From Saccostrea echinata (taxonomy: Eukaryota): a stretch of 64,000 nucleotides of DNA. The position numbers were made by a program, and so were the translations under genes. Under the pieces are notes generated by a model. It had not been told where the DNA came from. It saw nothing but the letters and a program-made list of their open reading frames with translations, and did not search any database. Shown here one piece after another: positions 15,001-64,000 of this stretch (position 1 is the stretch's first letter; the number at the start of each line of letters is the position of its first letter). Location of the stretch: contig NW_026889750.1 of NCBI RefSeq assembly GCF_033153115.1, positions 2,232,001 to 2,296,000 on the forward strand, read 5' to 3'.

Positions 15001-18000
15001 TACATATAGAACAGTATTCGGCATATATCCATTACATACATTAGACTTAAACGAAGTAGATGCGTCCGAAAAATATAAATCCTATACAAGGCAACTTGTA
15101 CAACGTAACAAAGATCTGTTTGCTAAAATGTATAGTGAGTTAGGGCACACTAAAACTGTAACAATGAAAATAGAAACTGGTGACCACCTCCCAATAAAAA
15201 ACAGACCTTACAGAACTCCGCTAAACAAAAGACAAATTATTGATAAAGCAATTGATAAAATGCTTGATGCAAAAATCATACAATGATCACAATCGCCGAG
15301 GTTTTTCCCGTTGGTAGTAGTTGGAAAAAAAGACGGAACGCAAAGAATGTGTGTAGATTTTCGGTCATTAAATAAAATTGTAAGACCAGCATCCTACCCA
15401 CTTCCGCTAATAGATGATATCCTGAGTTTATTGGATAAATCTAAATATTTTACTACACTAAATCTTAAAAGCGGATATTGGCAAGTTCAACTGCATTTGC
15501 TTGTCATAAAGGTTTATTTCATTTTAACAGAATGCCTTTTGGTTTAAGTAATGCACCCGCAGTATATCAAGAGCTTATAAACATTTTTACAAGGATGCGA
15601 AAAATTTGCCATTGCCTATCTCGACGATATGTTGTCATTTTTTCGAAAACACCTGAAGAACATCAAGCCCATATAGAGGAGATTTTCGGAGAATTTTGCA
15701 GCATGGTCTTAAATTAAAATTAAAGAAATGCAAATTTTCCAGGAAGAAACAGAATACTTAGGTTTTGTTATAGGCCCGGAGGGGGTTAAACCTGATGAAA
15801 AGAAAATAATGGCCATTAGAACATTACCAGCGCCAACTACAGTAAGGGAGGTTAGAGGGTTTATTGGCATGTGTAGTTATTACCGACGTTTTTTTCCCAA
15901 TTTTTCAAAAATAGCGGAACCTCTCATAAATCTTACAAGAAAATATGCAAGGTTTAATTGGGACGAACAATGTCAAATTGCATTTGATTTTCTTATGGAA
16001 AGTTTGACTGTTGTACCTTTGTTAGCAGACCCGGATGTAAACAAACCGTATGTACTTTACACTGATGCTAGTGAAAATTGTATTGGAGCGGTTCTTACAC
16101 AGCAAACTAATGAGGAGGAGGAAAAACCCATATATTATCTCTCGCATAAGCTTAGTAGTACTCAGACTAGGTGGTCCACAATAGAGAAAGAGGCATTTGC
16201 TATTCATTACGCATTACAAAAGTTAGATCATTATTTGCATAACGCCACTTTTACTATAAAAACTGACCACAAACCATTAAAGTACCTATTAGATGCCCCC
16301 ATGCAAAATAAAAAGATACAACTTTGGGCATTAAGTATAGCAGGTTACAATTGCAAAGTACAGTACATTGAGGTAGATATAATTGTTGTGCACATTTACT
16401 TTCCAGACTTCCGTCTACAATTAGTAAGGAAAATGATGAGGGAAATGAGGAAGACAATGAAACAGATGTAAATGAAAATGCTTTTGAACTCAATGTGATT
16501 AATTCTAACAGAATCGAACCCAAGAAATTTGCAAGTTGTGAATTATCGGTACCTGATGATTTAATAAACCATTTTTAGAACTACCAGAGGGTATTGATAT
16601 TCAACAATTACAAAATTCAGATGAGCAGATAATGAAATTGAGGGAAAAATTTAACAAGGGAAAAGCTACTCAATTTGAAGAAAAGAAATTTATAGAAATT
16701 GATGAATTGCTTTATTATTTGTCAGATGGTGATTCAGAGTCACCAAAATTGAGATTATTTATCCCAGCAGAGTTAGAAGAACTTACTCTAAAACAATATC
16801 ATGACAATTTAGGGCATATGGCTGTAGACAAGACCTATGATGCTATCCGACAAAAGTACTACATTCCCAATCTTTATAAAAAGTTAATCAGTTATATAGA
16901 AGAATGTGTTATTTGACAGACTAGGGGTGCTAGAAAAAGTCAACCTCCTGTGCACGAGACGTAAATTCAACCTTATCCTTTTGCAAAAATCGCACTTGAT
17001 TTGTCAGGTCCATACCCGACTACTTTGTCTGGAAACAAGTACATCGATTCATTGGTTAGATATTTACTCGGGGTGGCCGGAAGCATTTAGTGTCTCAGAT
17101 AAGTCCGCTGAAAATATAGTACATATAATTTTGGACGAGATCTTTCCAAGATACGGGTGTCCTTTACAGCTATTAACAGACAATGGTACTGAAAATGTTA
17201 ATAAGGCGGTAGCAGAAACACTAAAGGAATTGAATATTCATCACATTACTACTTCTTATTACAATCCACAGGGTAACGGGAAGGTAGAAAGGTTTCATCG
17301 AACTCTGCATGATGTAATGGCTAAAAAGGTTCAAGAAGATACACAAACTTGGGATCTTTATATAAACCAAACACTAGCTGCCATTAGGTATCACACCAAT
17401 GAATCAACTAAATACTCTCCTTTTTATTTATTGTATAACAGGGATGTAGTTTTACCATTAGATACTATATTGAAGGAGGTATTTGGGGGAGGATCAACAA
17501 AAAATTGCAATTCAACAGCAACATAAGGCATTTGTAAATGTTTACATAAATTTGAAAGAGGCAAAGCATAAACAGAAATTACGAGCCGATAAAGGGAGTA
17601 AAGAAGAAACTTTTCAAATAGTTGACCCTATTTATTTAAAAAATAATCGGAGGACTGGTAAGCTAGATAAAAAATGGGTACCCTATTACCGCATTGTTGA
17701 ACAAACAGGTCCCGTTAGCTTTGTTGTTAAAAATCAGTTAAATAATACCTCCACTAAAGCTCACGCAAGGCACCTTCATCATGCTCGAATTAATGAGTGA
17801 GAAATTCCACAAAATTCTGGAGAACGCACCTTAAGACAAACTCAGTATGTAGTACCCCCAGAAAACGAGTCTGATAGCGAAAATTCTGAACAGGAAGTAG
17901 AGCAGCCAGCCTTACAAAGAATGATAAATAGAAAACGAGTCGAACGCGAAAATTCCTCTGATGAAGACGACATCCCGTTACAAGAGTTAAGGAGGAGAAT

Positions 18001-21000
18001 TTGTGCTCGTGCTTTAAACAATCGCGAAACAGACAAAAATGAAAATTCAAACGAGGTAAATAATGACCATCTAATAACACCTAACGCAAATAACCGAGGT
18101 AAAGATACGGAAATGGAATATGGTTCTGACTCTACTATTGATAACAATTATCAATACTCTAATTCTGATTCGGGAAATGAAGAATATGGATTAGATATAG
18201 ATCCTACTATGCGTGATTCACCAGAGCGGTTAATTGAAGTAGAACAAGAAATGGAAGTTGACGGTATAAATATTAAATGTAATAACAACAAGTTAAAAAG
18301 AGGCTTCTGTAATAGTTGTGTAAAACCAACTGTAATGCCTAGAAAACGGGTATTAGTGCTAAATAAAGAGTGTTCGCAAAGTATAGATCTTAGTTATAAA
18401 CCTAAAGTTAAACCTAGAAGACCACAGGAACAGAAGGAGTTGTGTAATAGCGCATTACGAGAGAAAATAGTAATGTCGCAGATCAATTTATCAGGATCGT
18501 GGGGAAATTACTTCAAGTATAAATCGGGTAAAATTTATGAGTATTAAACACACTGTGTTTAGTTTGAAAGTTTCCTCGACCCTTTAAAATTGACAAAACA
18601 TATAAATTTGCCCCGAGAAAAGTGGATGTAAAGAGTTGAATAGTTGCCTTTGGACATCTCTCTTTTTCAGTAATCCCACTTATGGATCTTTGACAGCTAC
18701 TTGTAAATACTCAAAAAGAGCTACCAAATTTTAAACAATAATTGAAAATTCCATTCGTTTCCATTTTAACGTCTTGCATAACCTTACTGGAAGTTGACCA
18801 TCTTGTAATTGTTACAACTATTTGTGTATAAACATGATGAACAACATACCATAACAATTATGGGGAATGGTTAAAATATCATCCAACGTAATGTTTTACT
18901 TTATTGAATGTGGGATCATATTCAGCAATAACAAATCAAAACGCGTAAGACTTTGTGTCATTAAATTTTGGGTGTAAAGCAATTTATGGGTCTTTGATAC
19001 TACCACCTTTTTTATAATCAGGAGAGTACCTTTGATTTATTTTCATCTACCTTTTAATATTTTGTTTAAAACAAACGTCACTTTGTAAAAATTGATTTAA
19101 AAAATGTTTCTCTCCTAGAAAAATTAAAGGCACATCAAAGAATTACCTTTTCTTAATTTAATCAAAGAATTGTCTTTAATTTAGTAGATAATGTTGAGCC
19201 TATGCCTACGGACAATGGTTTCAAATGTCTTGGTTCAATTTATCTTCATTTTGCATTTGATCTATACCTAAGTGTGGAATGAGAACATTGATTCCAAAGC
19301 GAACAATATTTGTGAAGAGTAGTAAAGCGTAGTAAAAAAATATATCTATGCGTAGATAGTGATGTAAACATATATTGGACACTTATATTGGACCCATATA
19401 ATCAGTGCAACCAACTGTAACCTTTTATATTGGACTTAACATCGGGAACAGGAAGAATATGTCTGCGAACCTCATACGCTGTTCGATTATCGTAATATAT
19501 GCGATTAACAATTAATAAATTGTGACTAAATTATTTTCAAAGACTGGGCATTTTGTTTAATAAAAGTGAACAGTTTTGTTGGAATAATTCTTATCTTGTG
19601 AACGAACTAAACTGTAACTAAGTTTAAAGTTATGTTCAGGATTTAACAGAGAAATTTCAACTGGGAAATTTCTTATTGTGTGGGAATGTAAACCTGTAGT
19701 GTTTAGAACGGAAATTTTATTTGAACATTTTAAACTTGGACTATATTCATATCCTAATCATTTTAGTTATTAATAGCTAACTTAGTAGTGACAGTAAAAT
19801 AAAATAAAAGGTTATTAGGCAAGGATGTTCATTATTAGTGTACCACATACAGTGACTTTATAATTGGAAAAGGGACTTTATGTTCATGAACTATAATTAT
19901 CTTGTTAGAACAAATTGGATTTTGTTGTTGGTACAATGAACTATAATTTTGTAAATCATTTTATAATGGAATTGATCAGAAGAGACCAATCAAGTCCATC
20001 GATACTAAGTAATAAAATTTTAACGGAAATGCAAAGTTACTATTAAGATTCTTGACCAAGAGTAATAAAATTGGGAACTTTGAAGTAGATAAGTAAAAGA
20101 GCTTAGGGCTAGAACTCCTGTGTTGCAGAGATTGGAACGGAATCCATAAATATTATTAAAGTAGGTATACCTGGATTGGAGGGTGGTGCCATGTTGGGGT
20201 TCATAGGTCAACGGACAGACCTACGGACAAAGCGTAGGTGACATGGCAATGGTAAGACAGCCAAAGAAATGATTTTTATATCCCGGACCATGAATACCCT
20301 CTGAGCACAATATATCCCTGTTTTGCTGAAAAAACGTCTCTCTCTTTTCTTTGACTGTTTTGGAATACTTATTGGACTCTAATTTTTTTGGACCCCACCT
20401 TAATTATTACTTTTGGAGTTTTAGTTCTACGCTCTTGTTAAATATTTGGGACGGATCTTTAAAACTTTTGCTACAACCAGCGTATTGGTCTATTCTGGTG
20501 AAATTTCAGAAACAAGCATTTAAGGACCCTCTCTACACTGCACCCTATTTTCAGGGTACCTTTGTGTAATTAGACTGACCCACCATTTGACATATAAGTA
20601 GAATAAGTATTCTAAACATTATATCAGACCAAGATAGAGTATTTGAAAACTTTATTTCATGTATTTTATCCATTTGAGTAAGTGAAGGCAATTTTTCTTT
20701 TTCTATTACTTCAATGTCTTTGAAGATTTTTCCTGAATAAAAAGGCACGCTCCCTATATTAAAAATGGGTTAGTTAATTTCGAAATATCCTCCTTTATGT
20801 TATATAATTTTCTCAAAGTCCAAAAAACATTTTTCATCAGTGTATAGAGGGTCCTTAAAAATCTTTATGATCACGGTAGTTTAATAAACTTTTCAAAAAA
20901 ACTTACAAATTTTGTTATTGGCTTACAAATTACCATCGCAATTCTATTATTAAATTAAGATTTTCAACTACAGAGATTTTGAAATTCTTATATATATGTT

Positions 21001-41400: not shown

Positions 41401-43531
41401 GCTTACCCAAGTGGTACAATTCAAAGTATCCCATTCCGATCTATCAATGAGGTTAAAGAAAACTCAACAGAAACATATGAATTTGTACATGTATATCATT
41501 AAGTGATTTGATTTCCACACATATTACATGGTGCCCTAGTGAACACAAATCCAATAAATGATAGAATAGAAGCATTAATTCCAACCCCTACGACAAATGA
41601 AAACTTGACACGTTTACAATATAAGGAATTATTGGTCGTCAAAAGTCACAAATGATGATAATCATTTAATCAACATTTGGTGCTTTTACATTAATGATAT
41701 ATTTCTATAGTTTGTGTGACTTCTTGTTTGCTAATGTACTATTTTATTATAAGTGGCTTTGTGTCATTCATAAATTAAAAAAATAAGATTGTGTATACTT
41801 TCTAAGAGTTTTAGTGAAAATGCATATGGACGTCAAAGATATTTTGTCAAAAATACAAAATAATACCTGTACAAGAACATTTCTTTTCATGGCAATAATT
41901 GTGTTCACCATGATCGCAGTGATGATCAAAGCAATCCTTGTCTCGGAAACAAAAGGTACCTGTTTGAAAATATTTTATATACTAAAGAAAGATGCTTCAA
42001 TAGAGATTTATATCATAAATTAGTACACGAATAAATGTCATATGAATATGCCGTAATAAATTACAAATTATTTGCAATACATATTGGTTGATTGTATTGA
42101 ACATTATAGTTCTGGATTATTAGTTATACTAAACATATAACACCTAGACCTTCAGCAAGGGGGTTGCGCTTTTCAATGGTTTTAATATGTTCATTGTGAA
42201 CTGCTAGTTATATGAAACCAAAAAAAAAAATCGAAATTAAAAAAGAAAAAAAAGATGGTTACTTAGCTATACTATTTCAAGAAATTGTCGAGAAATTATT
42301 CGTGATATATTTATTTAAAATATTGCACAAATAAAATATTTATTGTTTGATATCATTTTTATACGAAGAAAATAACTACTTTCTTATATTATGTCCAGTT
42401 TTCATGAACTACCTTCCTTTAACTTTGTATACTTTTTGCCGTTTGGTAATGTTGAAGATGAATGTTTTGAAAACAGAATGCCTATTATACATTTGTATTA
42501 CATGTATCATGGGATTGTAAAACCAGGTAATATTTTTGAAACAGTGACTAGTGAGTATTCCACTTAACTACTTTTGTTTCCATTTGGACAAAATATTTTA
42601 AAAAGGGAGAGAAATTTAACAAAAATGATGAGCTGGTAGCCCTACAAATCTACATGATACCCCATTTCTCTACACTCATTCGTATGTTCTTACTGAGCAG
42701 ATATCCAAGCCTTCTCTGATTTGTGAGTTCTACCAACTCTTTCTCTTCTTTTTAATATTTTTAACCACACGGAACAAGTTAGATAGTAAATGCTCAGTGT
42801 TTTTTTTTTCAGAAATATCACCAAGTTTTATAATTCCTTGATAAAACATATAATCTTATCTTGCCCTCTGTTCTCGTTCTCGCACTCATTTTCAACAAAC
42901 GCAACGAACGTTTTATATATGGAAGATTATCAATGAAAACTGCATGTATTAAAGAAAGCATTTAATTATATCATAATATGTTATTTTTGCATTTTAGCTA
43001 CATGTATTGAAATAAATACTTAAAAGATATCTGGGAACACTGAATGTCAAAGATGGTTCATGTGTCTGACGACGAGAGTGAATTTTGGCAGAGAGAAGTG
43101 GAGATACCATGAGACATGCTTTTAAATAACATGTAAGAATCAATGATTCAATACTATTAATTTTAATACTATAATCAAACTATTCTTTAAAGAATGGAGA
43201 TAACATGATTTACGACATACCAAAAAGGAAACCATCCACCGAAGAAAAATACAACCCTTAAAAGAAATATAACCTGCAACAGTATCATTCTTGATATTCG
43301 TATTCAGAAATTATTTTTTTTTAAATTATAATTATGTCTTTGAAATTATAACTGGAATATACTATAAAGTCCTTTTTGCACAACTATATAGCCATACAAA
43401 ATACTTCAAGCTACTTGAACGTTTTTGTGAAATGTATAAAACGTGTATGTTTTGATACTTGGTAGAAAAAATAAAAAAATAAACTCAAAATTACCTGTAA
43501 ACAAAACCAAAAGAACATCAAAATTCCTCAT
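2966..43531 (-). CDS. Gene B (multi-exon span): secreted protein with signal peptide, 7 cvSI/I84-like 6-Cys modules, Thr-rich linkers and a C-terminal three-finger (LU-like) domain
   Basis: Phase-compatible GT-AG exons: 43531-43495, 43256-43221, 42481-42413, 41959-41867, 40601-40581, 32376-32245, 32063-31956, 30866-30735, 30553-30446, 29360-29229, 29024-28917, 10620-10486, 3297-3138, then gap..2966. They join into one open frame. Joining them into a single transcript is inference. Confidence 0.7.
3002..3136. other. Assembly gap (135 N)
   Basis: Run of N. Confidence 1.
3138..3297 (-). CDS. Gene B exon: N-terminal half of three-finger/LU-like domain (IRKCHTCGDANSSISCDTRTIYLGNLQNCASDEHFCMTDIVHDGTAYPKTFKR)
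   Basis: Acceptor ttatcaaag, open phase-1 frame, CxxC...C...C...C...KR pattern; the donor G abuts the gap. Confidence 0.8.
3910..4974. mobile_element. Non-autonomous hAT-like TIR element
   Basis: Ends (C)AGGGTTCTCCAT / ATGGAGAACCC with TTAACTGTG(G/T)C subterminal repeats; TSD not clean. Confidence 0.55.
5455..5830 (+). mobile_element. Penelope-like RT C-terminal fragment
   Basis: Translates to TTKLYDKRDDFNF.IVNFPYLCGNI...SQLIRYAR...KFYCRYNELV. Confidence 0.8.
6185..6800. mobile_element. Two Penelope-like 3'-end fragments in opposite orientation (~6185-6400 +, ~6585-6800 -)
   Basis: CATGACAAGGAGCACACG...GGGATGCTCACTCTTCCATGGCACTTGATTCCACC on +; reverse-complement CGTGTGCTCCTTGTCATG on -. 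Confidence 0.6.
7371..10330 (+). mobile_element. Helentron/HINE-type element with internal ~170-bp satellite units (Cg170-like), interrupted by insertions
   Basis: Starts AACAAGAGGCCCATG..CACATCG..CACCTGAG, has repeated GATTTGAACAAACTTGAATCTACACTACCTGAGGAT-type units, and ends in a CAGACAGAC tract and GAGCTAAA. Confidence 0.75.
9493..9829. mobile_element. TTAA-flanked MITE (Kolobok-like)
   Basis: TTAA|GGACATACGCAAC ... GTTGCGTATGTCC|TTAA: perfect 13-bp TIR. Confidence 0.8.
10486..10620 (-). CDS. Gene B exon: Thr/Ser-rich mucin-like linker (STPTAQSMTMKTATTQITEEKTSTSTGSVPPTTTSSNNRPTTYT)
   Basis: 135 nt, phase 1-1, acceptor ctttttatttctattag, donor cag|gtata. Confidence 0.85.
11099..11279. mobile_element. 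TA-flanked MITE (Tc1/mariner-like)
   Basis: TA|CTGTAAAATCACTTA ... TAAGTGATTTCACAG|TA. Confidence 0.65.
11315..12136 (+). repeat. 5' LTR (822 bp)
   Basis: Direct repeat of 19687-20927; TG...CA ends; AATAAA near its 3' end. Confidence 0.95.
12152..12171 (+). promoter_or_regulatory. Primer-binding site, tRNA-His-like (TGGTGCTCGTTGACCGGGAT), 15 nt downstream of the LTR
   Basis: Begins with TGG; resembles the complement of the metazoan tRNA-His 3' end (TGGTGCCGTGACC..GAT) with two extra bases. Confidence 0.65.
12370..13588 (+). pseudogene. gag: Gypsy gag (disrupted), two CCHC zinc knuckles
   Basis: Consecutive ORF pieces; CHR*GKVGHRAEFC and CWHCENYDHISGHC; ends QQEN*. Confidence 0.85.
13650..14370 (+). 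pseudogene. pol: Gypsy aspartic protease region
   Basis: YRALVDTGAEVSLI and VILGRDWL motifs. Confidence 0.9.
14370..15034. mobile_element. Nested non-Gypsy insertion in pol, including a Helentron/HINE-type end (~14670-14970)
   Basis: pol homology breaks after ..GEITNF and resumes at TLDLNEVD. The insert has a TTTTTATGCCCCCG..CGGGGG hairpin, a GTCC/GTCT tract and TTGACCTTGACCTT. Boundaries approximate. Confidence 0.7.
15035..16471 (+). pseudogene. pol: Gypsy reverse transcriptase + RNase H (frameshifted)
   Basis: PIKNRPYR, RMCVDFRSLN, YPLPLIDD, MPFGLSNAP, YLDD, YLGF, LYTDAS, EKEAFA, TDHKPL. Confidence 0.95.
16632..18547 (+). pseudogene. pol: Gypsy integrase plus long acidic C-terminal extension (frameshifted)
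   Basis: H..GH..C zinc finger, LLTDNGTE, YNPQGNGKVERFHRTL, SPFYLLY, then acidic ORF 17921-18547. Confidence 0.9.
19687..20927 (+). repeat. 3' LTR (1241 bp including a 331-bp MITE)
   Basis: Direct repeat of the 5' LTR; preceded by a short purine tract GGGAA. Confidence 0.95.
20524..20854. mobile_element. TTAA-flanked MITE (Kolobok-like) in the 3' LTR
   Basis: TTAA|GGACCCTCTCTACACTG ... CAGTGTATAGAGGGTCC|TTAA; absent from the 5' LTR; related copy at 46190-46571. Confidence 0.9.
21035..21100 (+). mobile_element. Short Penelope-like RT fragment
   Basis: Translates to EIKDTTESDTSVSYLDI. Confidence 0.6.
21915..22078. mobile_element. Short MITE (hAT-like ends)
   Basis: CAGTGGCGGATCCAG ... CTAAATCCGCCGGTG imperfect TIR with G/C runs inside. 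Confidence 0.55.
22585..23120 (+). mobile_element. Penelope-like RT C-terminus plus 3' end
   Basis: TTKLYDK..DFNFPIVNFP...LIRYARA...YGRYNELV, followed by GGATGCTCACTCCTCCATGGCACCTGATCCCACC. Confidence 0.8.
23229..23640. mobile_element. Left-end fragment of a CAC-terminated TIR element
   Basis: CACGCAGCACTGTTAAGG is nearly the reverse complement of the family's right end CCTTAACTGTGCTGCGTG (40018). Confidence 0.5.
24141..25988. mobile_element. Non-autonomous TIR DNA transposon hosting a TRIM
   Basis: GCAGTACAGTTAAGG ... CCTTAACAGTGCTGC inverted ends; interior similar to 1480-2347 and 39230-40018. Confidence 0.6.
25251..25555 (-). mobile_element. TRIM with tRNA-derived LTRs (Helenus-type non-autonomous LTR element)
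   Basis: LTRs 25555-25433 and 25358-25251, both TGTAA...TTACA. A box TAGCTCAGTCGG and B box GGTTCGATTCC in the left LTR, slightly decayed in the right. 74-bp interior with PBS TGGTGCCGTTGACC. Flanks TAAG/TAAT (3 of 4 match). Confidence 0.85.
26383..26510. repeat. Imperfect ~125-bp palindrome (foldback)
   Basis: TTATGGAAACACC..GGTAATAGGGAAATATATCGGGTCCTTGAAA / TTTCAAGGACCCCATATATTTCCGTATTACC..GGTGTCTACATAA; a further half-copy at ~27838-27890. Confidence 0.7.
26755..27680 (+). mobile_element. Helentron/HINE-type element with ~4 satellite units
   Basis: ACAAGAGGCCCATGGGC..CACCTGAG start, the same ~170-bp units as 7371-10330, and a CAGA(T)GACAGACGGA tract near the end. Confidence 0.75.
28917..29024 (-). 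CDS. Gene B exon, 6-Cys module type b (CIGDKDCICPEGKTPHCEYNSTHVHQRFCRCSQII)
   Basis: 108 nt, phase 1-1, ttttag acceptor and gtatgt donor. Confidence 0.85.
29229..29360 (-). CDS. Gene B exon, 6-Cys module type a (ATTTSDCKDDFDCTSHVCPNEARIPYCKSHGVFFLQTYKCDCI)
   Basis: 132 nt, phase 1-1, tacag acceptor and gtatgt donor. Confidence 0.85.
   Translation of the reverse strand: MPQQPLTVKTILTVHLMSVRMKLEFLTAKVMVFFFFKLTNATV
30446..30553 (-). CDS. Gene B exon, 6-Cys module type b (CIGDKDCICPAGRTPHCQYNSTHVHQRSCRCSHTT)
   Basis: 108 nt, phase 1-1, GT-AG. Confidence 0.85.
30735..30866 (-). CDS. Gene B exon, 6-Cys module type a (ATTTTDCKDDFDCISHVCPNEARIPYCKSQGDSSNQTYKCDCI)
   Basis: 132 nt, phase 1-1, GT-AG. 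Confidence 0.85.
   Translation of the reverse strand: MPQQPLTVKTILTVYLMSVQMKLEFLTAKVRVILPIKLTNATV
31956..32063 (-). CDS. Gene B exon, 6-Cys module type b (CIGDKDCICPAGSTPHCEYNSTHVHQRSCRCSHTT)
   Basis: 108 nt, phase 1-1, GT-AG. Confidence 0.85.
32245..32376 (-). CDS. Gene B exon, 6-Cys module type a (TTTTTDCKDDFDCTSHVCPNEARIPYCKSQGDSSSQTYKCDCI)
   Basis: 132 nt, phase 1-1, GT-AG. Confidence 0.85.
   Translation of the reverse strand, partial: LPQQPLTVKTILTVHLMSVQMKLEFLTAKVRVILPVKLTNATV
33030..33610. repeat. Degenerate ~120-bp tandem units, probably within an old Helentron-type element
   Basis: CATCCA(C/T)(A/G)CAAG(T/G)TTG(G/A)TC recurs at ~33061, 33362 and 33481. Confidence 0.5.
36378..37494. 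mobile_element. ~1.1-kb element with a ~165-bp near-perfect palindrome at each end
   Basis: Palindromes 36381-36545 and 37324-37492 (TAAGGAATCACTGTCTAG...CTAGACA(G/T)TGATT(T/C)CTTA) with CGAAG/CTTCG loops; inner arms ~36600-36865 and ~37070-37270 are also inverted. Confidence 0.8.
38330..38418. repeat. Palindrome with GCGAAGC loop (partly deleted)
   Basis: TATGGAATTTATTTCACGAGT...GCGAAGC...CGAGTGAAATAAATTCCATA. Confidence 0.6.
39230..40018. mobile_element. Right arm of CAC/GTG-terminated TIR element
   Basis: Best-preserved copy of the family; ends CCTTAACTGTGCTGCGTG; left boundary uncertain. Confidence 0.65.
40581..40601 (-). CDS. Gene B 21-nt microexon (DNVDTNT)
   Basis: tattttcag|ATAATGTCGACACAAATACAG|gtatgc, phase 1-1. 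Confidence 0.7.
41867..41959 (-). CDS. Gene B exon, first 6-Cys module (TFCFRDKDCFDHHCDHGEHNYCHEKKCSCT)
   Basis: 93 nt, phase 1-1; C-x5-C-x4-C-x7-C-x4-C-x-C spacing, close to the half-domains of oyster cvSI inhibitors. Confidence 0.85.
42413..42481 (-). CDS. Gene B candidate exon (ILFSKHSSSTLPNGKKYTKLKE)
   Basis: 69 nt, phase 1-1, open frame; weak acceptor and aag|gtagtt donor. Confidence 0.5.
43221..43256 (-). CDS. Gene B exon 2 (GLYFSSVDGFLF), end of signal peptide
   Basis: tttcttttaag acceptor and gtatgt donor, 36 nt; VDG|F fits a signal peptidase site. Confidence 0.8.
43495..43531 (-). CDS. Gene B first coding exon (MRNFDVLLVLFT), signal peptide
   Basis: CAAAATG start context, hydrophobic run, cag|gtaat phase-1 donor. 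Confidence 0.8.
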
Positions 43532-54379: not shown

Positions 54380-54478
54380 CTAATTTATTCCTAGGTAACT
54401 TCTTAAGCAATCTCTGTCACTACAACAGAAGATTTCCGCATCCGATAGAACATTCTTCATGAAACTGCAGTCTTCTTT
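54380..54478 (-). CDS. Gene A last exon (KEDCSFMKNVLSDAEIFCCSDRDCLRSYLGIN*)
   Basis: tttttgacag acceptor, phase 0, CCxxxxC motif, TAG stop. Confidence 0.88.
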   Translation of the reverse strand, partial: KEDCSFMKNVLSDAEIFCCSDRDCLRSYLGIN

Positions 54479-57400
54479 CTGTCAAAAACACAGCATTTTA
54501 ATACTAAGTAAGTGCTCCATTGTTAGCATTATGATGTTTTATTTAATAGATTTATATCAATACTGTCTTTATTTTGTGGATTCGCAGTTAAGATTTTTTT
54601 ATCTGCTATTTTGTAGGTATCGATAAAATGTAAATCTCCATAGATAACATACATAGAAACACTCTTTGTGCCATGCAGTTCCCGATTTATTCTACACAAA
54701 ATTATCCTGAATAAATTAGATAAATAACTACCAACATGGTAGAGGTTAATTTACACGTCACCTAGCACAATGAAATTACACACATACCAAATGAATAAAC
54801 AATGTATGTCAAAGCCTTAACTAAGTTGAGTGTTTTTTGTTTTTTTTTTAAATTTAAGATATGGCTGATTGGTTCATCAAATATCATGCTGAAGAAGTTT
54901 AAATATTAAATTTTACGTAGATAAACGTATAACATATTACTCTTATACAATGCGTGGTAAACTTAGTTCCTGGATATTGTCGTATCATACAAATCTCTTC
55001 CGGATAACATGTCTGGTTCCATACACAGTTTAATTCTTCATCGCATGTGGGACACTGAAAACCTATAATATCAAAAAAAAAAAAAATGTCTGCAAACTCT
55101 TTTTCCGATTTAATAGGGAAAAAAAAACAGATGAAAACTGGACAAAATATGATCAGAACAAGGTAAAAAGGTAACATTTTGTTTTAGCTAAGGCTTCCAA
55201 ATGCCAAATGCACAAGATAAAAAATTTATNNNNNNNNNNNNNNNNNNNNNNNNNNNNNNNNNNNNNNNNNNNNNNNNNNNNNNNNNNNNNNNNNNNNNNN
55301 NNNNNNNNNNNNNNNNNNNNNNNNNNNNNNNNNNNNNNNNNNNNNNNNNNNNNNNNNGAACAAGATTTTATTTTTAAAAATATGAACTGGGATATTATAT
55401 ATATATGACGCGTTTTTGCTCTTGTGTTGAATGGAAAAGCAAACAGTAATCGATGTAGATTTGTTTTCATGTGTCAACAATTTCTTTGATGCAAATGTTA
55501 CAATGTACCTGTTAATTTGGACCACTGTGTAAGATTTCACAACTATAGATTTGATATTGTGTACAATCTTCAATTAAATTTTGATTTTTTTTTTAAATGT
55601 AAGATGTTATTGAAGCTTTTAAGTATTTTTTATTCAATTGTTTTGTGAAAAATAGTATCAGTTTCTTAAATACTTAATTGCTAGATATTTTTAAAAACGG
55701 TCGCTGCTAGCTAAGAAGCTTTGCTCTCTCTACTTTTAGTACTTGGGTTTTACCATCTGTTGTTGTTGCTGCTGCTGCTGTCGTTAAGCTTATTGTTGTT
55801 ACTGACGTTGTTCTTGTCGTTGTTTCTAAATGTCAATAGAAAGAGAAATTTGCTGATACAACTGGAAACTAACACCAAATTCTTCTAGAACAATGCTTTA
55901 TTTTTTTTTCATTTCACACTTATGTGTGCAAAAGAGGATTACTAATAAGCTGTTGGTTCTGTAAAAATGATGCATCCTACATATTGAAAATATTAATTGA
56001 TTTCAAAGCGATAAAAACATCTTAAAAAATCTTTATCCTACAGAATGATGACACCATTAATTGTCATATTGTTTTCTGTATATCGTAAAAAAATTCTCCT
56101 AACTGGGTATGAAATGATAATGAATTTGAAAAAAAAAGACCAATACTAACTTAAAGATTTAGTTCTAATCACTGTGAAGAAGGTCAACCTATCACGGAGT
56201 CTAAAAATACGTAAAATATGGTAGTGTTCTGTCAAATTTTTGACATCAAGTAGTCATATCCCGTAAATATTTTTTGCGGTATAATATGACCGCAGAATTA
56301 AAATCTCAAAAATTAATTGGTTACCTTTTAAAGGTCAGATCGCCAAAAAATTCAACCGCAGAAAATACCAAATATACGATAATTCTCACTGCTTCTTAAC
56401 CGTCACTTTAGTCTAATAGTAGGACATTCGCTTTGTGATCCGGAGGCCCGGGTTAAATTCTTGCTAGCCGCACCGAGTCAAACCTAAGACTTAAACATAG
56501 GTAGTAACTGTTCCTTCGCTAATCAATTTCATAAGTGAAAGTCACAGGTCTTTAGGATGAGACCTTAAAAACCAGGGTCTCCTTTCACGGTAGGCGTTGG
56601 CACGATAAAGAACTTTCACTGCTCAATGGCGCTCAATACCGAGAAAGGATCTAAATATATCCCTTCACCGGAATGTGGTGACTTCTGTACAAGAGTGAAA
56701 AATTTTCGAATCGGACGTAAACAACATTCAATCAAACAACCAATAATCCAATTTCATTGTGTTTGTTAAGACTTTCATTGAGTACAAGTTAAAGTCAACA
56801 GCCCGAAGTTATGACAAAGTAAATATTAGAGCGATAAAAATAAAACCTAGGATTGCTTATTTATAACAAATTAAGGGGGCATCAAATGTTTTTGGAAAAA
56901 GTTTGAAAAATGCCATTTGGAAGCATATTTAATGTATGAAGCAATCTTGCAAATTCAGCTGTAAGTTATATTCACATATGGGAAGCGAAGTTAGTCAAAT
57001 AACGATCAATCGTTTGAAATAAAATGTAGATAATGATGAGTTCAGAACATTTTCATCACATGTATGAATTTGATCAAGATTTTTGGATTTTTCAGCGTGT
57101 TCAGCGAGAGGTATAAAATAAAAATAAAATATTAATAAAAAAAAAAACACTGAAGGACTGGCCAAGAAATATGTGAGCAATGGCGACGTTTTGTCATTTA
57201 AATTGTACATGGTATACACATTTTATACCATAATATCTGTTATATGAATCCAATTCAAAAAGTTTGATTTTAAATATTTGAGCTGAAATGTTATTAACTG
57301 TATTATTAAGTCTTTGGATATAAACTGTTAATTTTTTCATGATTGATTGATTGATTCTATATTGTTTTACGTCCCATTCGAGAATTTTTCACTCATATAG

Positions 57401-60400
57401 AGACGTCACCATATACCGGTGAAGGGCTTCAAATTTTGACCTTTACTCGGCACTCAGGGCCATTGATCAGTGAGGGATCTTTATCGTGCCAACGCCTGCC
57501 GTGACACGGGGCCTCGGTTTTTAAGGTCTCATCCGAAGGACCCGCAACTTTCACTTCAAAATGCCGAGCGCATGGCGAAGGAACAGTTGCTACCTATTTT
57601 TTATCGACTTAGGTCTGTCGCGGCCGAGATTCGAACTAACGACCTCCCGATCACGGAGCGAGCGCTCTACCGACTGAGCTACCGTGAACGGTCAATTTTT
57701 TTCATTACAAAAGTCAAAACTTAAAAACTTTTCAACATGAAGCGATGTGTAACTAAAACTGTCCATATAGTTTCTTGATGTCGTAGATATCGGTAATTAG
57801 ATGTATAGTGAAAATACCACCAAAAAACACAGATCTGAAATACCCAAAAAGCGACATTGTCCATCTGAACAGAACAGTGGGCAATCCTAAAATGCCGTCG
57901 GATACGAAGTGAATAATAGAATTACATGTATAAGAGGAATTATTGGAACATTTCAAGCTCATTGTATTAGGTGTGTTATAAATGGATTTTTGATGGTGTG
58001 AACAATTTGAGAGACGCTGCAAGAAATGGAATATCATTTTTGTAATTGAACTGAGAATTCATGACGAATTTGCATATCCACCATATTTAAACATTTCCAT
58101 GATTTAACCAATGTAAACATGCTTTGAAATTTGTATTGAAACAATGTCATGAATATGAAATGCGTTTTAAATATGTAGTTAAAACTGAAAGTAAATACCT
58201 ATTAAATACTTAGAGTAATTATGTAGTACCTGCGATTTCGTCACACACGCAGCTGTGTGAATTTTGTAAAAAATCAAAGTGACATCTGCCAGCCGAACTT
58301 TGAGGACAAATACAATGCTTGTGTTCCGTGCAAACTAAAACAAACAAACAAATACCGACAACGAAAACTTCTCATAAAACATGTTTATGAAGAAAAAAAA
58401 AAGATTTTGAGATTTTCCAGCATTTTTGTCAGAATTGATCAGTAAAAATGGACAATAAGTTTTAAATTAGTGTTCACAATTTGGAGTTCTGGACAAAAAG
58501 ATCTTTCCTTCCTGATAATGACTCTTTAAAGTCAATCAAAAGTCCAGATTTATATTCCTTATTTTCTGTATTATTGTTTAAAACAGCAATTACATGTAAC
58601 TGTCGAATAATATTTCACTTACAAAATGATTTTAAACCATCTCCTATTTCTGAAAGTATTTTGTGTGAACTAAAGCTGTATTTGTTGACTTTGTTGAATT
58701 TCGGTGCCAAGGCAATATTATCAGCTAATTACTTTATACTGTCATATTTCTCCACAAGAGAAGATTTAAACAAATAGTTTGTTCATAAACTTTAAAAAAC
58801 TTTTATTCAAATTACTAGTCTTGGATGTTTTGAAAGGCATAAAAGGGAACGGTGAACAATTTTTCTGATTTGTATCTCAAATGGTTAACCTACTCTTATG
58901 AGGAATATAATTATTAAATACTGTCAATTCAGGTATTTTGAAAAAAAGAATACATTTACCTGTGCATTGACATGTTGAAGAATGTTTATCAATATTGCAG
59001 TAAGGATGTTTATGAGAGGGGCAGACGTGGTCACTACAGTCAGTATGATAATGACATGTTGAAAGTGTTGTAGGAATCTCTTCGGTTGCGATTGATGCGG
59101 TTGGCGTACCCACTGGCTTGCGAAAATAAGCTGAATTAACAAATTTGATAAGGATGTTTAAATCTTAACTTAAAGAAAAAAGTATTTTATAAAATAAACA
59201 TGTCTCTTTTTTTTCAATTTCAGTGAATCGCTGAATTGCTCATCTTAATTTTTTCTTTAAAATATTCTGATAACAAAATATACATACATGAATTCGTAAA
59301 ATAAAAGTTGTTTTAAGGGGCATAGACACGTGTTTACATCCTTTAAAATTCTCGATAGAATTTCATGACCTCCATGTTGTTAGAGAGTTTCAGCAAGTGT
59401 GTCTATGTCCCTTTAAGGATGACGTTCACTCAAACGACGAAAAAAAAATCCACTGATAGAAATGAAAAACGATCTATTGTACATTTTAGACCTATGATTG
59501 TAGTGTTGTTTTTCACTTTCAAATAACTAAGTTATGACTGAAATGCGTTCTGTCTGCGTTTCTTCATCCGTTTGACATCCGTTGGAGCTATCCGGTAAGG
59601 TGTGACTGAACCCGTACGCTATGAGCAATGTTTTCTTTATTAACAAAGTATAACAAGTAACAAAAGTTTCTGGACAATGAAATACAATGAAAGTGTGGTT
59701 TTTAAAGCATAGAATCCAATTTTTTCTTCACACGGATTGAGATGAAACTAAAACTATAGGACAGCAAGTCACTCAAATGTTTTCATATACATTCATTTGC
59801 TGTCATTTTGTGTGGTTTCCCCTATGTTGGTTACCAATTTTCAGATTTTCTTCGGATGGTAAAAAAAACCCAAGAATTTTGCCTGATAAAAGTAAAAATG
59901 ATCTCGCAGTCGAATAAAATCGCCTATACGATTGTTCTGAGTTGCAATGCCTACCCAACATTTTTACATCACACAAGTGCATGTACGTGAAGATATTTTC
60001 ATCTTGGTACAAAGGATTTGATGTGAATAAAATGTGAATCTTAGTATTTTATTAACATGTGGTGATAAAAATACCACAAAAATGGCCTTGACGTGACATC
60101 ATATTTGACGTCGTCAAAGGGGAGTAACCAGAATTTTATGATTCTGTAAATTCTTCGAGTTGTCTTTCAAGGAAACGAGGGAATTTTGTTAATAATTCAT
60201 AGCTCTATAGAAAATTTCGAAATATTTAATTTCAATCATTGTATCCTGGTATTTATTCTTTTAGTTTTGTTTTTCACTAGTAAATTCATTTCACCATGCA
60301 TCGGACACAAATTAACCATGCATCGGACGTTGTCCATTGTGGATAATTTACTTCCTTTGTCGTATAGAGATACGTGTATAATACCCATATGACAGTTCCT

Positions 60401-62429
60401 TTTGCAGAAATGAAAAAAATAACTCAATACATTCAGTGTAAATACAATATATCGAAAACTAAAAATGGGCTCTTCTGTATTAATTATATCTTCACACTAG
60501 AATACAATAGCTTCCGAGAGCAAGGCGGAAGTTGCCATATGACGAGGCATGGAAGGGCCTTTCTAAGGCAATGTAATGCGACCATAATCTCTCCACATTT
60601 GCGAATCGATAAAGTCAATCAAATTAAAATAGGGAGTTGATTTTTAAATGAAGCTTAAAAATTTCCTGTCTGTAATTTATAAGGGTTTCAGATCTTTTAA
60701 AGGCCACTGCGATAAAGGAAATTAAAGAGATTATCCGGTTTAGTATATTGTTTGTACGATGCAGTGGTGAATATTGTCCGATCTATGGTGAATTCTGGCT
60801 CATTAAAATCGTTTTTAATGATATTTTCTCAATAAATAGCATTAAACTGTCTCAAATTCATATTTTCATCACGAAATACATGTTAAGCTCCATTTCGATA
60901 CATTCGGTTGTTAGCAATATCGCTTATATTTGTTGCAAGTACGAGGGTGCCCGATGCATGGTGAACTAACCCTAACTATAAAATTAAATTATTATCAAGT
61001 TATTCACATTTATAGATATTATTTACCTTCAGTCGTCGAGGCTAAAAGAAAATATATTAGAAGAATTCGATTACTGTATACACATACACAAATACTGTAC
61101 ATGTATATACTGTATAAACAATATACACATTTGTGAAAAGGGTGAAGATAACGAACAGTGATCGATCTGTGAACAGGGCATAAGACACGGACTCCTGGTC
61201 ATTTCAGAGATGGCATAGATGCCTAGGAGAAGAAAGCATCCCCTGTCGACCGGTCACATCCGCCCTAAGCCCTAATATCGATCAGATAGATGGCATTTTC
61301 CGTAGTCAAATTTAATATAAAAGCCAAGGCCTAGCAATTTGTATGAAAAACGTCATCCAAAATACGACTAAACGATAGATCACATTTGCTTAGCAAAATT
61401 GCATTTCAAAACATGATAACCAGAATATTTCTAAAGAAATGTATAAAAAAAAAAAAGAGGAGAAATTAAAGAAAATATAAAAAATTAATTGTCATTTTGG
61501 TTATTATTTTATAGTTTCAGTAACTTCGTTCTTTTAATGTCGTTTAATTAAATCTACAATACTTTGAAGTTATTCTCTTTTTAGGAATTATTTACCTGTA
61601 GTCGTCGGAGCTAAAAGAAAATATAGTATTGGAAGAATTTGATAACAGTATCATATAAACAGAATATAAATTTATCTTAGAAGAATTGAATTAAAAACAT
61701 GATTAACATGCAGAATTAAAAACAGAAGAGACCAAAATTTTTAAATTTCCTTTCATTTATTTTTTTCTACTTTTATTCACTTTATGTTTTTAATGTCATT
61801 CATATTTTTCCTTACATATTAATTTTTTTCTTTTATTGAAACATTTACCTTCAGTCGTCGTAGCTTAAAGAAATTAATAGAGGAATATGATAAACAATAT
61901 CAAATCAACAGTATATATATATCTATCTTAACAAAATTTCATTTGAAAACATGATTAGCGGAATAATTCTTTCTAGAGCAAATAAAAATTTAAATCAAAA
62001 TAGAAAAAAAAGAATATACCAAAATTTAAAGAGATTTATTTCGATTTATGCTATTTAATGTTAGTTACTTAATCTTTTTAATGTCGTATCTATAGCTAAA
62101 TATGTAATATTAGGAAGTTATTCAAATTTTTAAAAATGATATACCTGTAGTCGTCGGAGCTACAAGAAAATATGTTAGAAGAATTAGATAACCACATCAT
62201 ATAAACAGCATATAGACATGTACAGGTTTCCTAGCAAAATTGCATTTCAAAACATTACTAACATAATATTTGTATAAAGAGTAGAATTAAAAACAGAAGA
62301 AACCAAAATTTAAAATTCATTTATTTATTATTTAATCATTTAACTCTATCTTTTTGATGCCATTTATATTTTCCACAGATTATGAATTTTTTTTACTGAT
62401 AATATATTATATACCTTGAGTCGTCTTAG
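54380..62429 (-). CDS. Gene A (3' part; 5' end beyond window): Thr-rich microexons, 6-Cys module pair, Thr/Ala linker, three-finger (LU-like) domain
   Basis: Exons 62429-62415, 62159-62145, 61863-61849, 61610-61596, 61041-61027, 59112-58960, 58334-58230, 55825-55754, 55062-54941 and 54478-54380 are all GT-AG, phase-compatible and free of internal stops; AATAAA on minus at ~54305-54300. Confidence 0.85.
54941..55062 (-). CDS. Gene A exon (GFQCPTCDEELNCVWNQTCYPEEICMIRQYPGTKFTTHCIR)
   Basis: 122 nt, phase 1-0; with the next exon gives a 10-Cys LU-like pattern. Confidence 0.88.
55230..55357. other. Assembly gap (128 N)
   Basis: Run of N. Confidence 1.
55754..55825 (-). CDS. Gene A exon (ETTTRTTSVTTISLTTAAAATTTD)
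   Basis: 72 nt, phase 1-1, GT-AG. Confidence 0.85.
56400..56745 (+). mobile_element. tRNA-derived SINE (old copy)
   Basis: Decayed tRNA head, GGCACGATAAAGA core, GAGTGAAAAATT..GGACGTAAA and (CAAT/CAAA)n tail. Confidence 0.75.
57341..57693 (-). mobile_element. tRNA-derived SINE (Meta-type core likely)
   Basis: A box GGTAGCTCAGTCGG, B box GTTCGAATC, (CAAT)n tail, TSD AATTTTTT(T)CAT. Confidence 0.9.
58230..58334 (-). CDS. Gene A exon, 6-Cys module type b (CTEHKHCICPQSSAGRCHFDFLQNSHSCVCDEIA)
   Basis: 105 nt, phase 1-1; same C-x5-C-x-C-x7-C...CxC pattern as gene B type b. Confidence 0.88.
58960..59112 (-). CDS. Gene A exon, Thr linker + 6-Cys module type a (GTPTASIATEEIPTTLSTCHYHTDCSDHVCPSHKHPYCNIDKHSSTCQCT)
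   Basis: 153 nt, phase 1-1; shares DC..HVCP....PYC...CxC with gene B type a. Confidence 0.88.
59317..59412. mobile_element. Tiny TTAA-flanked MITE
   Basis: TTAA|GGGGCATAGACAC ... GTGTCTATGTCCCT|TTAA. Confidence 0.65.
61027..62429 (-). repeat. Tandem array of five 15-nt microexons in ~250-300-bp intron-exon units
   Basis: tttcttt(t/a)ag- or ttcttgtag-type acceptors, C(C/T)nnGACGACTnnAG exons, gta(a/t) donors; in transcript order they encode AKTTQ, APTTT, ATTTE, APTTT, ASTTE. Confidence 0.9.
61135..61385 (-). mobile_element. Penelope-like 3'-end fragment in a microexon intron
   Basis: GAAAAGGGTGAAGATAACGAACAGTGATC...GCCTAGGAGAAGAAAGCATCCCCTGTCGACCGGTCACA is the reverse complement of the family's 3' motif. 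Confidence 0.75.
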
Positions 62430-62498
62430 CTAAAAGAAATAAATAGAATATGATAAACGATATCAAATCAACAGAACATGCATATACCATTATCTTAA

Positions 62499-63403
62499 AG
62501 GGGCCTTGACACAGTTGCACTGTCTACAATTTTAAATGTCTAATTTTTTTTATTTCAAAAAGGACACAGTTGCACTGTCTACAATTTTAAATGTCTATTT
62601 TTCATTTCAAAAATTATCCTCAGTTAAAGATTTGAACTTACAAGAGTATTCTAAGAATTCAATGACAACGACATCGCACTAAGCACCTGTGTTTGTGAAC
62701 AGGGCACGAGCTCTGTTATTGTTAGTGTTAACGTTTTATTGGATGTGTTCAATTTGTTTTAGTCTGCACACACCACTGAGCACGAACTGATTGATTGTAT
62801 TTTGTTTTACATCCCGTTCGAGAATTTTTCACTCATATAGAGACGTCACTATATACCGGTGAAAGGCTTCAAATTTAGACCTTTACTAGGCACTCACAGC
62901 CATTGAGCAGTGAGGGTCTTTATCGTGCCAACGCCTACCGTGACACGAGGTCTCGGTTTTTCAGGTCTCATCCGAAGGACACGCAACTTCAAATTGCCGA
63001 GTGCTTGGCAATGGAACAGTTGCTACCTATTTTTGAACGATTTAGCTCAGTCGCGGCCGTGATTCGAACACAAGACCTTCCGATCACGGAGCGAGAGCAC
63101 GGATTGACAATACTGGTGAATTTGTTCTGCTTTTCGCATTTTTAATCTGAACTTTCTGGATTATAGTTTTAATATTTTTTATTAATACACAACAAAACTT
63201 CTACTTTTCTTAAGTATTATGAATAAAGTCTACCTTGTGAAAGTGCAAGGATATGTGTCAATCAAAAACCTCCCAAAAATCGTAGTTTTAATAATTTGCA
63301 GATAAAAGAATTTTTCAACATTTACAGTTGAAAATGCTCTGGCATTATATAAGTTATGATATTATTTAGAAAGTTTTAGCTTCAAAATTCTGTCTGAGCC
63401 CCT
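62499..63403. mobile_element. TTAA-flanked Kolobok-like element containing a SINE
   Basis: TTAA|AGGGGCCTTGACA ... TGTCTGAGCCCCT|TTAA; the flanks rejoin to match the empty site in the sister unit at ~61925. Confidence 0.8.
62788..63095 (-). mobile_element. tRNA-derived SINE, 5'-truncated
   Basis: Aligns with 57341-57693 over ~300 bp. Confidence 0.85.
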
Positions 63404-63486
63404 TTAACAAAGTATCATTTAAAAACATGATTAGCAGAATACTTTTTTCTAAAGCAAATAAAAATTGAAATTAAACTACAAAAAAA

Positions 63487-64000
63487 CTGTGGAATCATTA
63501 GATTTCGTGGTGTCTCAGTTTTCGTGAAATTCGTGAGTTCCTTTTCTTCGCGAGTTAACAGTCGCCCGCGTGGCGCAGTGGTTAGAGCGTTCGCTCTAGA
63601 GTCGCGGAGTAAGGAGTTAATCCTTACGAATCCCACTGTTGGACGTGGAGACCGGTCCTTCGGTTGAGACCGTATAAACTGAGGTCCCGTGTTGCAGTAG
63701 GTGCTGGCACGAAAAAGATCCCTCACTGCTCAATGGCCCTAAGTGCCGAGTATAGGTCAAAATTTGTAGCTCTCCACCGGCAAGTTGTGGCGTCTCCATA
63801 CGAGTGAAAAAATCTCGAGAGGGACGTTAAACAATAAACAAACAAAAAAAAAAAAAAACGAGTTAACATCCTCCACGAACTAATGAACTACGGTTACAAA
63901 GTTATATTTCCTTTTTTGGGTATAAAGAGAATACACGAAATGTGTCCCCAAAAACCTGTAATATTTCTGCAATCCACGAAAATTGGCCCCTACGAATTTA
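63487..64000. mobile_element. MITE (CTGTGGAATCATT.. TTTCGTG type) interrupted by a SINE; runs to the window end
   Basis: TTTCGTG repeats at the left end and CACGAAAA repeats at the right end, as in 11099-11279. Confidence 0.5.
63561..63858 (+). mobile_element. tRNA-derived SINE, full length
   Basis: A box TGGCGCAGTGG, GGCACGAAAAAGATCCC core, A-rich tail, perfect 10-bp TSD CGAGTTAACA. Confidence 0.92.

Follow-up and report, generated by a model that had tools for sequence, protein, structure and literature searches.

In the SmPoMuc multigene family, the polymorphic mucins of Schistosoma mansoni, exon 2 is a 27-bp exon that, in the sections of Roger et al. (2008, PMC2576457) on which we draw, is carried in units of about 1 kb in up to about 20 copies with introns >93% alike, and the differences in repeat number are put down there to unequal crossing-over. 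For chicken Muc13 and its zebrafish homologue, mucins of the SEA/transmembrane type, at least 12 repeats of 20 residues are described in the portion of the report by Lang, Hansson and Samuelsson (2006, PMC1552070) that concerns them, and its authors propose length control via alternative splicing. The micro-exon genes (MEGs) of schistosomes, as presented in excerpts of PMC4350168 and PMC4015677, encode secreted products by very small symmetric exons, which account for the greater part of the coding sequence (as much as 75%) and for which skipping has been demonstrated. Molluscan Family I84 inhibitors of the cvSI type have 3 exons, 12 cysteines and products of 7-9 kDa, according to part of PMC9198434. 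In a limited literature, supplements apart, we found no published report on bivalve microexons or on the oyster gene LOC105344865; papers on microexons and oysters held nothing on the present array in their titles or the starts of their abstracts, those on molluscs, micro-exons and mucins dealt nearly all with schistosomes or parasites, and the portions of PMC4948705 that were available contained no relevant passage.

Here, we describe five 15-nt exons in a 64-kb stretch of AT-rich animal DNA (the window), which very likely belong to the Saccostrea echinata gene LOC133181654 and lie upstream of its annotated part. Their closest parallels are the exon-per-repeat stalks of SmPoMuc exon 2 and chicken Muc13, the oyster unit being shorter. 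As in SmPoMuc exon 2, for which this is reported in the sections of PMC2576457 cited above, a short exon is tandemly repeated with its flanking introns and the repeats hinder assembly or annotation; unlike there, the oyster exon measures 15 nt, the units are of about 270 bp, five copies are visible, the introns are 75-80% alike and two unit types alternate, and we point to a likeness of design, with no claim of homology. As in the part of PMC1552070 on chicken Muc13, a Pro/Thr/Ser-rich domain is built with one repeat per exon: each repeat lies on its own exon, which is repeated with its flanking intron, and the 25 residues coded by the five exons include 14 Ser/Thr and 2 Pro. Unlike Muc13, the oyster protein is small, its units have 5 residues, and neither a VWD nor a SEA Pfam hit was obtained in any of eight family proteins, the full-length P0009 among them, so that the product of LOC133181654 is not a classical gel-forming or transmembrane mucin. 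The original prediction also found the array reminiscent of schistosome micro-exon genes. The oyster exons are likewise very small and symmetric, and their product is likely secreted, but they contribute just 12% of the visible coding sequence (75 of 641 bases; the 5′ part of the gene lies outside the window), so LOC133181654 is not a MEG; furthermore, only 347 nt lie upstream of the first annotated cysteine-module exon (exon A) in contig X3, a transcript contig described below.

Results

Five 15-nt exons on the minus strand

All five exons lie on the minus strand of the window, in the transcript order 62415-62429 (E5), 62145-62159 (E4), 61849-61863 (E3), 61596-61610 (E2) and 61027-61041 (E1), and encode AKTTQ, APTTT, ATTTE, APTTT and ASTTE, respectively, where the first residue of each 5-mer takes one base from the preceding exon. 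The coordinates, AG acceptors and GT donors of the original prediction, which had described five 15-nt exons with canonical splice sites, were borne out. The acceptors are pyrimidine-rich (four TAG, one AAG), the donors read G-GTA(A/T)AT with the first G ending the exon, and all five exons are of phase 1-1 and symmetric, which keeps the frame on skipping. To rank them, a splice matrix trained on 22 other splice sites of the window (11 acceptors, 11 donors) was applied to 3,062 candidates, namely the open symmetric stretches of 6-45 nt on both strands of the window. The five exons took ranks 1 (E2), 2, 4, 5 and 6, rank 3 being held by a training exon, with acceptor scores of 7.1-11.3 and donor scores of 7.5-10.2 compared with leave-one-out scores of the training sites of -0.4 to 8.4 and 0.6 to 9.4, respectively. 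The weaker APTTT acceptors that a first matrix had suggested (3.3, 4.8) were gone (10.3, 7.1) once near-duplicate training exons had been removed. A mismatch search found no sixth exon copy within the 64-kb window.

Repeat anatomy of the array

The repeat unit consists of exon plus intron and spans about 250-300 bp. It had been predicted that exons and splice sites are better conserved than the introns, and this holds by a modest margin: mean pairwise identity is 80% for the exons versus 75-80% for whole introns when gap columns are ignored, while flank alignments show 49-60% when gaps are counted. All five copies agree in 10 of the 15 exon columns, 7 of them consecutive. The 15-column windows of the upstream intron contain on average 6.4 invariant columns (maximum 9; 48 windows) and those of the downstream intron 4.2 (maximum 10; 198 windows, four copies), and the longest invariant run in the introns is 4. 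A repeat with an exon-like core by chance, that is, an intronic minisatellite, would also yield alike exons, since one chance motif would be copied along with the repeat, and the exon identity is indeed near that of the gap-free introns. Yet 23 of the 33 columns over splice sites and exon are invariant, the exons are without indels, and contig X3 carries spliced homologues in register and in frame, which nearly excludes this reading; overall, we consider it highly improbable.

E2 and E4 are identical in sequence, E3 and E5 differ at two bases, the E5-E4 intron is 80% like the E3-E2 intron, and the intron upstream of E5 agrees at 88-91% with that between E4 and E3; these pairwise likenesses and the identity of E2 and E4 point to the copying of a two-unit block of about 550 bp. 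A dimer of this size had been proposed for the whole array. It applies to the exons from 62415 to 61596, with periods of 566 and 549, and does not extend to 61027, whose 569-bp spacing contains an unrelated insert of about 250-260 bp. The flanks of E1 group with those of E2/E4 (upstream 74% and 65% versus 56% and 51% to E3/E5; downstream 76% and 71% versus 48% and 56%). A tree of the upstream flanks unites E3 and E5 at 95%, and in that of the downstream flanks support is 60-73%, with the branching not settled.

Sequence of the intron unit that reappears around 63405-63485 had been read as a sign that the array continues past the window. This stretch contains no new unit and is E5's own upstream intron, split by an insertion of 905 bp (62499-63403) with short inverted ends between TTAA copies: 62430-62498 is 91% identical to positions 213-281 of the E4-E3 intron, and 63404-63470 on the minus strand, beyond which repeat sequence runs to the window end, is 88% identical to its positions 150-217. 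The two are thus adjacent parts of one intron on the template, and 63404-63470 was rejected as a further repeat unit. Continuation nevertheless seems probable from the intron type and the position of the gene start outside the window; elsewhere, an intron of this type follows an APTTT exon, which makes a sixth exon beyond the window likely. The TTAA target sites of the insertion presumably recall Kolobok or piggyBac elements. Within the insertion lies one of four copies (72-88% alike) of a dispersed repeat, at 62788-63098, the others being at 56493-56739, 57348-57665 and 63560-63849; two have a tRNA-like head, the repeat is very deep in all three sequencing runs, and we take it to be SINE-like.

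Host gene, paralogue and protein domains

Downstream of the array, five further coding exons of LOC133181654 were located, all on the minus strand. Exon A (58960-59130) encodes a YFRKPVG-Thr-rich stretch and a six-cysteine module, exon A2 (58230-58334, 105 nt) a second six-cysteine module that is 44% identical to the C. angulata homologue, exon B (55754-55825) a Thr-rich linker of 24 residues, exon C (54941-55062) the first part of a Ly6/uPAR-like C-terminal domain and exon D (54380-54478) its end and the stop codon. Exons A, B, C and D are part of the RefSeq protein XP_061172197.1 (P0002; 100% match over exon C), which has 156 residues, begins with MLAYFRKPV without a leader and leaves out both exon A2 and the microexons. 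An ATG at 59961, with a donor at 59955 spliced to the acceptor at 59130, would account for its start. A second in-frame AG lies 18 bases downstream in exon A (59112), and 59110-59130 scores as a possible 21-nt piece; the three transcript contigs X1, X2 and X3 use the acceptor at 59130 and not that at 59112.

A paralogous gene or genes occupy the window from 43531 to about 3100 on the minus strand, with leader exons at 43495-43531 and 43221-43256 (hydrophobic, by eye), a six-cysteine exon at 41867-41959, a 21-nt phase-1 microexon at 40581-40601, a Thr exon at 10486-10620 and, near 3137-3300, a longer Ly6/uPAR-like exon interrupted by an assembly gap. At 28917-32376 (minus strand), a pair of six-cysteine exons is present in three tandem copies, the first two 1.5-kb units being 98% identical; the 108-nt exons there end in AA followed by GT. 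A paralogue intron harbors, at about 12300-18550 on the plus strand, a fragmented LTR retrotransposon with ORFs in several frames. Judging from their motifs, these ORFs are gag-, protease-, RT/RNase H- and integrase-like.

With the Family I84 inhibitors, as far as they are described in the part of PMC9198434 cited above, the oyster genes share two six-cysteine modules on separate exons with similar cysteine spacing (by eye; C-x5-C-x4-C-x7-C-x4-C-x-C in the paralogue exon 41867-41959) and, in the paralogue, a signal peptide split over two exons. Unlike those inhibitors, the last loop is x8 in exon A and x10 in exon A2, stalks and a Ly6-like end are added, and LOC133181654 has at least 10 exons and domains besides the six-cysteine modules. 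The likeness is a resemblance of pattern only.

The C-terminal end is likely a Ly6/uPAR (three-finger) domain, as judged from a structure model with pLDDT 67-81 over residues 81-156 of XP_061172197.1: in a structure comparison (VIA), the best match was Prod1 (Z 7.4, rmsd 2.6, 68 aligned) and the top 15 rows were all three-finger-fold proteins, and the best Foldseek match was CD59 at E 0.22, below the firm threshold. XP_061172197.1 itself had no Pfam hit; a paralogue exon gave a match to UPAR_LY6 with an E-value of 2.5e-4, which falls short of the curated cut-off. Relatives occur in oysters of Crassostrea/Magallana and in S. cucullata (C. angulata LOC128165644, C. gigas LOC105344865, C. virginica LOC144625411 and LOC144625706, and in S. 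cucullata LOC134260917 and the 'mucin-2-like' XP_062614376); all are uncharacterised or named by resemblance and, like LOC133181654, consist of six-cysteine modules, Thr-rich linkers and a C-terminal cysteine-rich domain. In the homologues of C. angulata, C. gigas and C. virginica, the exon-A module is immediately preceded by a Thr-rich stretch. The protein of C. angulata carries three additional modules ahead of the stalk as well as a hydrophobic leader, and P0009 begins with a hydrophobic leader (by eye). The 5-mers themselves occur in none of nine other proteins (P0003-P0005, P0007-P0010, P0012, P0013) and not in the near copy P0011; P0006, an unrelated-looking repeat protein, was left out of the alignment (A3). 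A length of 415 versus 410 residues in C. angulata and C. gigas was dismissed as evidence on the stalk, the difference sitting in a later linker. A homologue search with XP_061172197.1 yielded none among 643 longer candidates and three, the query included, among 46 of near length, none of 48 pattern matches in a metagenome scan was confirmed, and ESM Atlas matches of 0.78 and 0.77 serve as leads only.

Altogether, the protein is likely secreted and composed of a Thr stalk, two six-cysteine modules, a Thr linker and the Ly6/uPAR-like end. Judging from the homologues and the neighboring paralogue, a signal peptide and N-terminal cysteine modules would lie beyond the window.

Transcript evidence

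Contigs from three sequencing runs were available, which are not recorded as RNA and were taken as such by guess; each of the contigs X1, X2 and X3 joins 58960 to 58334, the loose ends matching the first 30 bases of exon A2, and hence they are spliced RNA. X3 (947 nt, depth 13) differs from exon A by 9 letters and a one-codon gap and stems from a related oyster. It contains two units of the 15-nt type in tandem and in frame with exon A at 59129/59130. The unit adjoining exon A agrees with E1 in 13 of 15 letters and codes the same peptide, ASTTE, and the second agrees with E3 or E5 in 12 of 14 letters and codes KTNE (both by eye). Both unit boundaries coincide with predicted exon boundaries of the window, and the probability of the two matches by chance is about 1e-6 and 3e-6 each. 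The tandem in-frame units of X3 together with the splice ranks make it very likely that the five 15-nt blocks are real exons. The claim that they are coding microexons of a Thr-rich stalk is upheld by these units, by the Thr-rich stretch of the homologues at the same place and by the Ser/Thr content of the 5-mers. The two X3 units could lie in one exon in the genome of the related oyster. No APTTT unit was seen in X1, X2 or X3, for which 30 of the 347 letters upstream of exon A are visible, and there was no RNA support for E2 and E4. The stretch 61714-62287 is without cover in all three runs, and we did not count this as evidence, 15-nt pieces being probably too short to align.

Transcripts from the two runs closest to the window differ from X3, and the 15-mers predicted for transcripts were seen in only part of the runs. 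X1 and X2, >99% identical to the window, splice an apparently repeat-derived, non-coding exon (59288-59513, minus strand, the 5′ end being that of the contigs) to 59130 at a depth of 5-6 and have no loose end listed at 59130, so microexon-type units appear in one of the three runs and another 5′ partner in two. The exon 59288-59513 overlaps an inverted repeat and a dispersed repeat and contains stop codons in each of the three frames; it may represent a start site within the intron or a cryptic cassette. The microexons might accordingly have been real once and be bypassed or decaying in S. echinata, with repeat-derived starts or splices between 61027 and 59130 leading to a 5′-truncated, non-secreted or non-coding RNA. 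The use of the donor at 59288 in both X1 and X2 fits this, as do the lack of an in-frame Met in 59288-59513 after the last stop, the RefSeq start, which may reflect another intronic donor (59955), and the insertions that interrupt three introns of the array region. However, none of the five exons has lost its open frame or its top-ranked splice sites, E2 and E4 are the same, X1 and X2 reach a depth of just 5-6, and contigs can show that an exon is present but not that it is absent. We regard loss by bypass or decay as unlikely: the five blocks are almost certainly real exons in origin, and their use in S. echinata is highly probable.

X3 also bears on the idea of real exons that undergo regulated or stochastic skipping, so that one animal makes a ladder of stalk lengths. 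All five exons can be skipped in frame, X3 passes from an E3/E5-type unit directly to an E1-type unit without APTTT in between, and there is precedent in the alternative splicing of SmPoMuc and the proposal for chicken Muc13 (in the sections available of PMC4015677 and PMC1552070, respectively). On the other hand, the grouping of the E1 flanks with E2/E4 makes the order in X3 that of a plain two-unit ancestor, for which skipping is not needed, and the symmetry is a family trait, since most other exons of LOC133181654 and its paralogue are of phase 1-1, too. The splice sites, moreover, score at or above those of other exons. An upstream TGC motif marks regulated neural microexons, and TGC is absent from the 40 bases upstream of each of the five. 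A ladder by skipping is therefore a tentative possibility.

Discussion

We lean, with limited assurance, toward coding microexons of LOC133181654 that arose by tandem duplication of exon plus intron, are mostly included, and set stalk length mainly through DNA copy number. Against it stand X1 and X2, two of the three runs and those closest to the window, as well as XP_061172197.1, all without microexons, and also the absence of APTTT from the visible contig sequence and of the 5-mers from the other proteins examined; the identity of E2 and E4 beside introns that are 75-80% alike counts for coding microexons, and the duplicated exon+intron units of the downstream paralogue count for tandem duplication. 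A two-unit block, made of an AxTxE/Q-type and an APTTT/ASTTE-type unit, would have been copied by unequal crossing-over. Since every copy has 15 nt and is of phase 1, the frame survives the gain or loss of units, and duplication of the block would be tolerated because each unit keeps it. We infer that all five exons are included in S. echinata; spliced in a row, they would yield a 25-residue spacer, probably O-glycosylated in view of its composition, which exon A would lengthen by about 24 residues and which, in mucus or haemolymph, may separate the six-cysteine modules from one another as well as from the Ly6/uPAR-like end.

A more far-reaching view is that of an immune or mucosal protein that combines I84-like modules with a Ly6-like end and in which a lineage-specific array of 15-nt exons serves as a five-residue ruler with a per-animal splice ladder, copy number differs among Saccostrea species, and the array can be uncoupled by a repeat-derived exon. 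We consider this combination doubtful; if true, it would be a host-side, mollusc counterpart of the polymorphic mucins of parasites.

The array is an unannotated example of a design known from mucin genes; its unit is unusually short, and RNA supports it in part. For the gene model, it entails a correction, as the RefSeq protein has no leader and is without the 105-nt cysteine exon and the five microexons. Biologically, the effect is probably small, with five residues per exon in a segment of 25. The exon-per-repeat stalk of flatworm and vertebrate mucins would have arisen in a bivalve as well, as a young array with a 5-residue unit, and LOC133181654 offers a test case for an issue brought up for Muc13 in 2006, namely whether variation in such arrays comes from splicing or from differences in DNA copy number.
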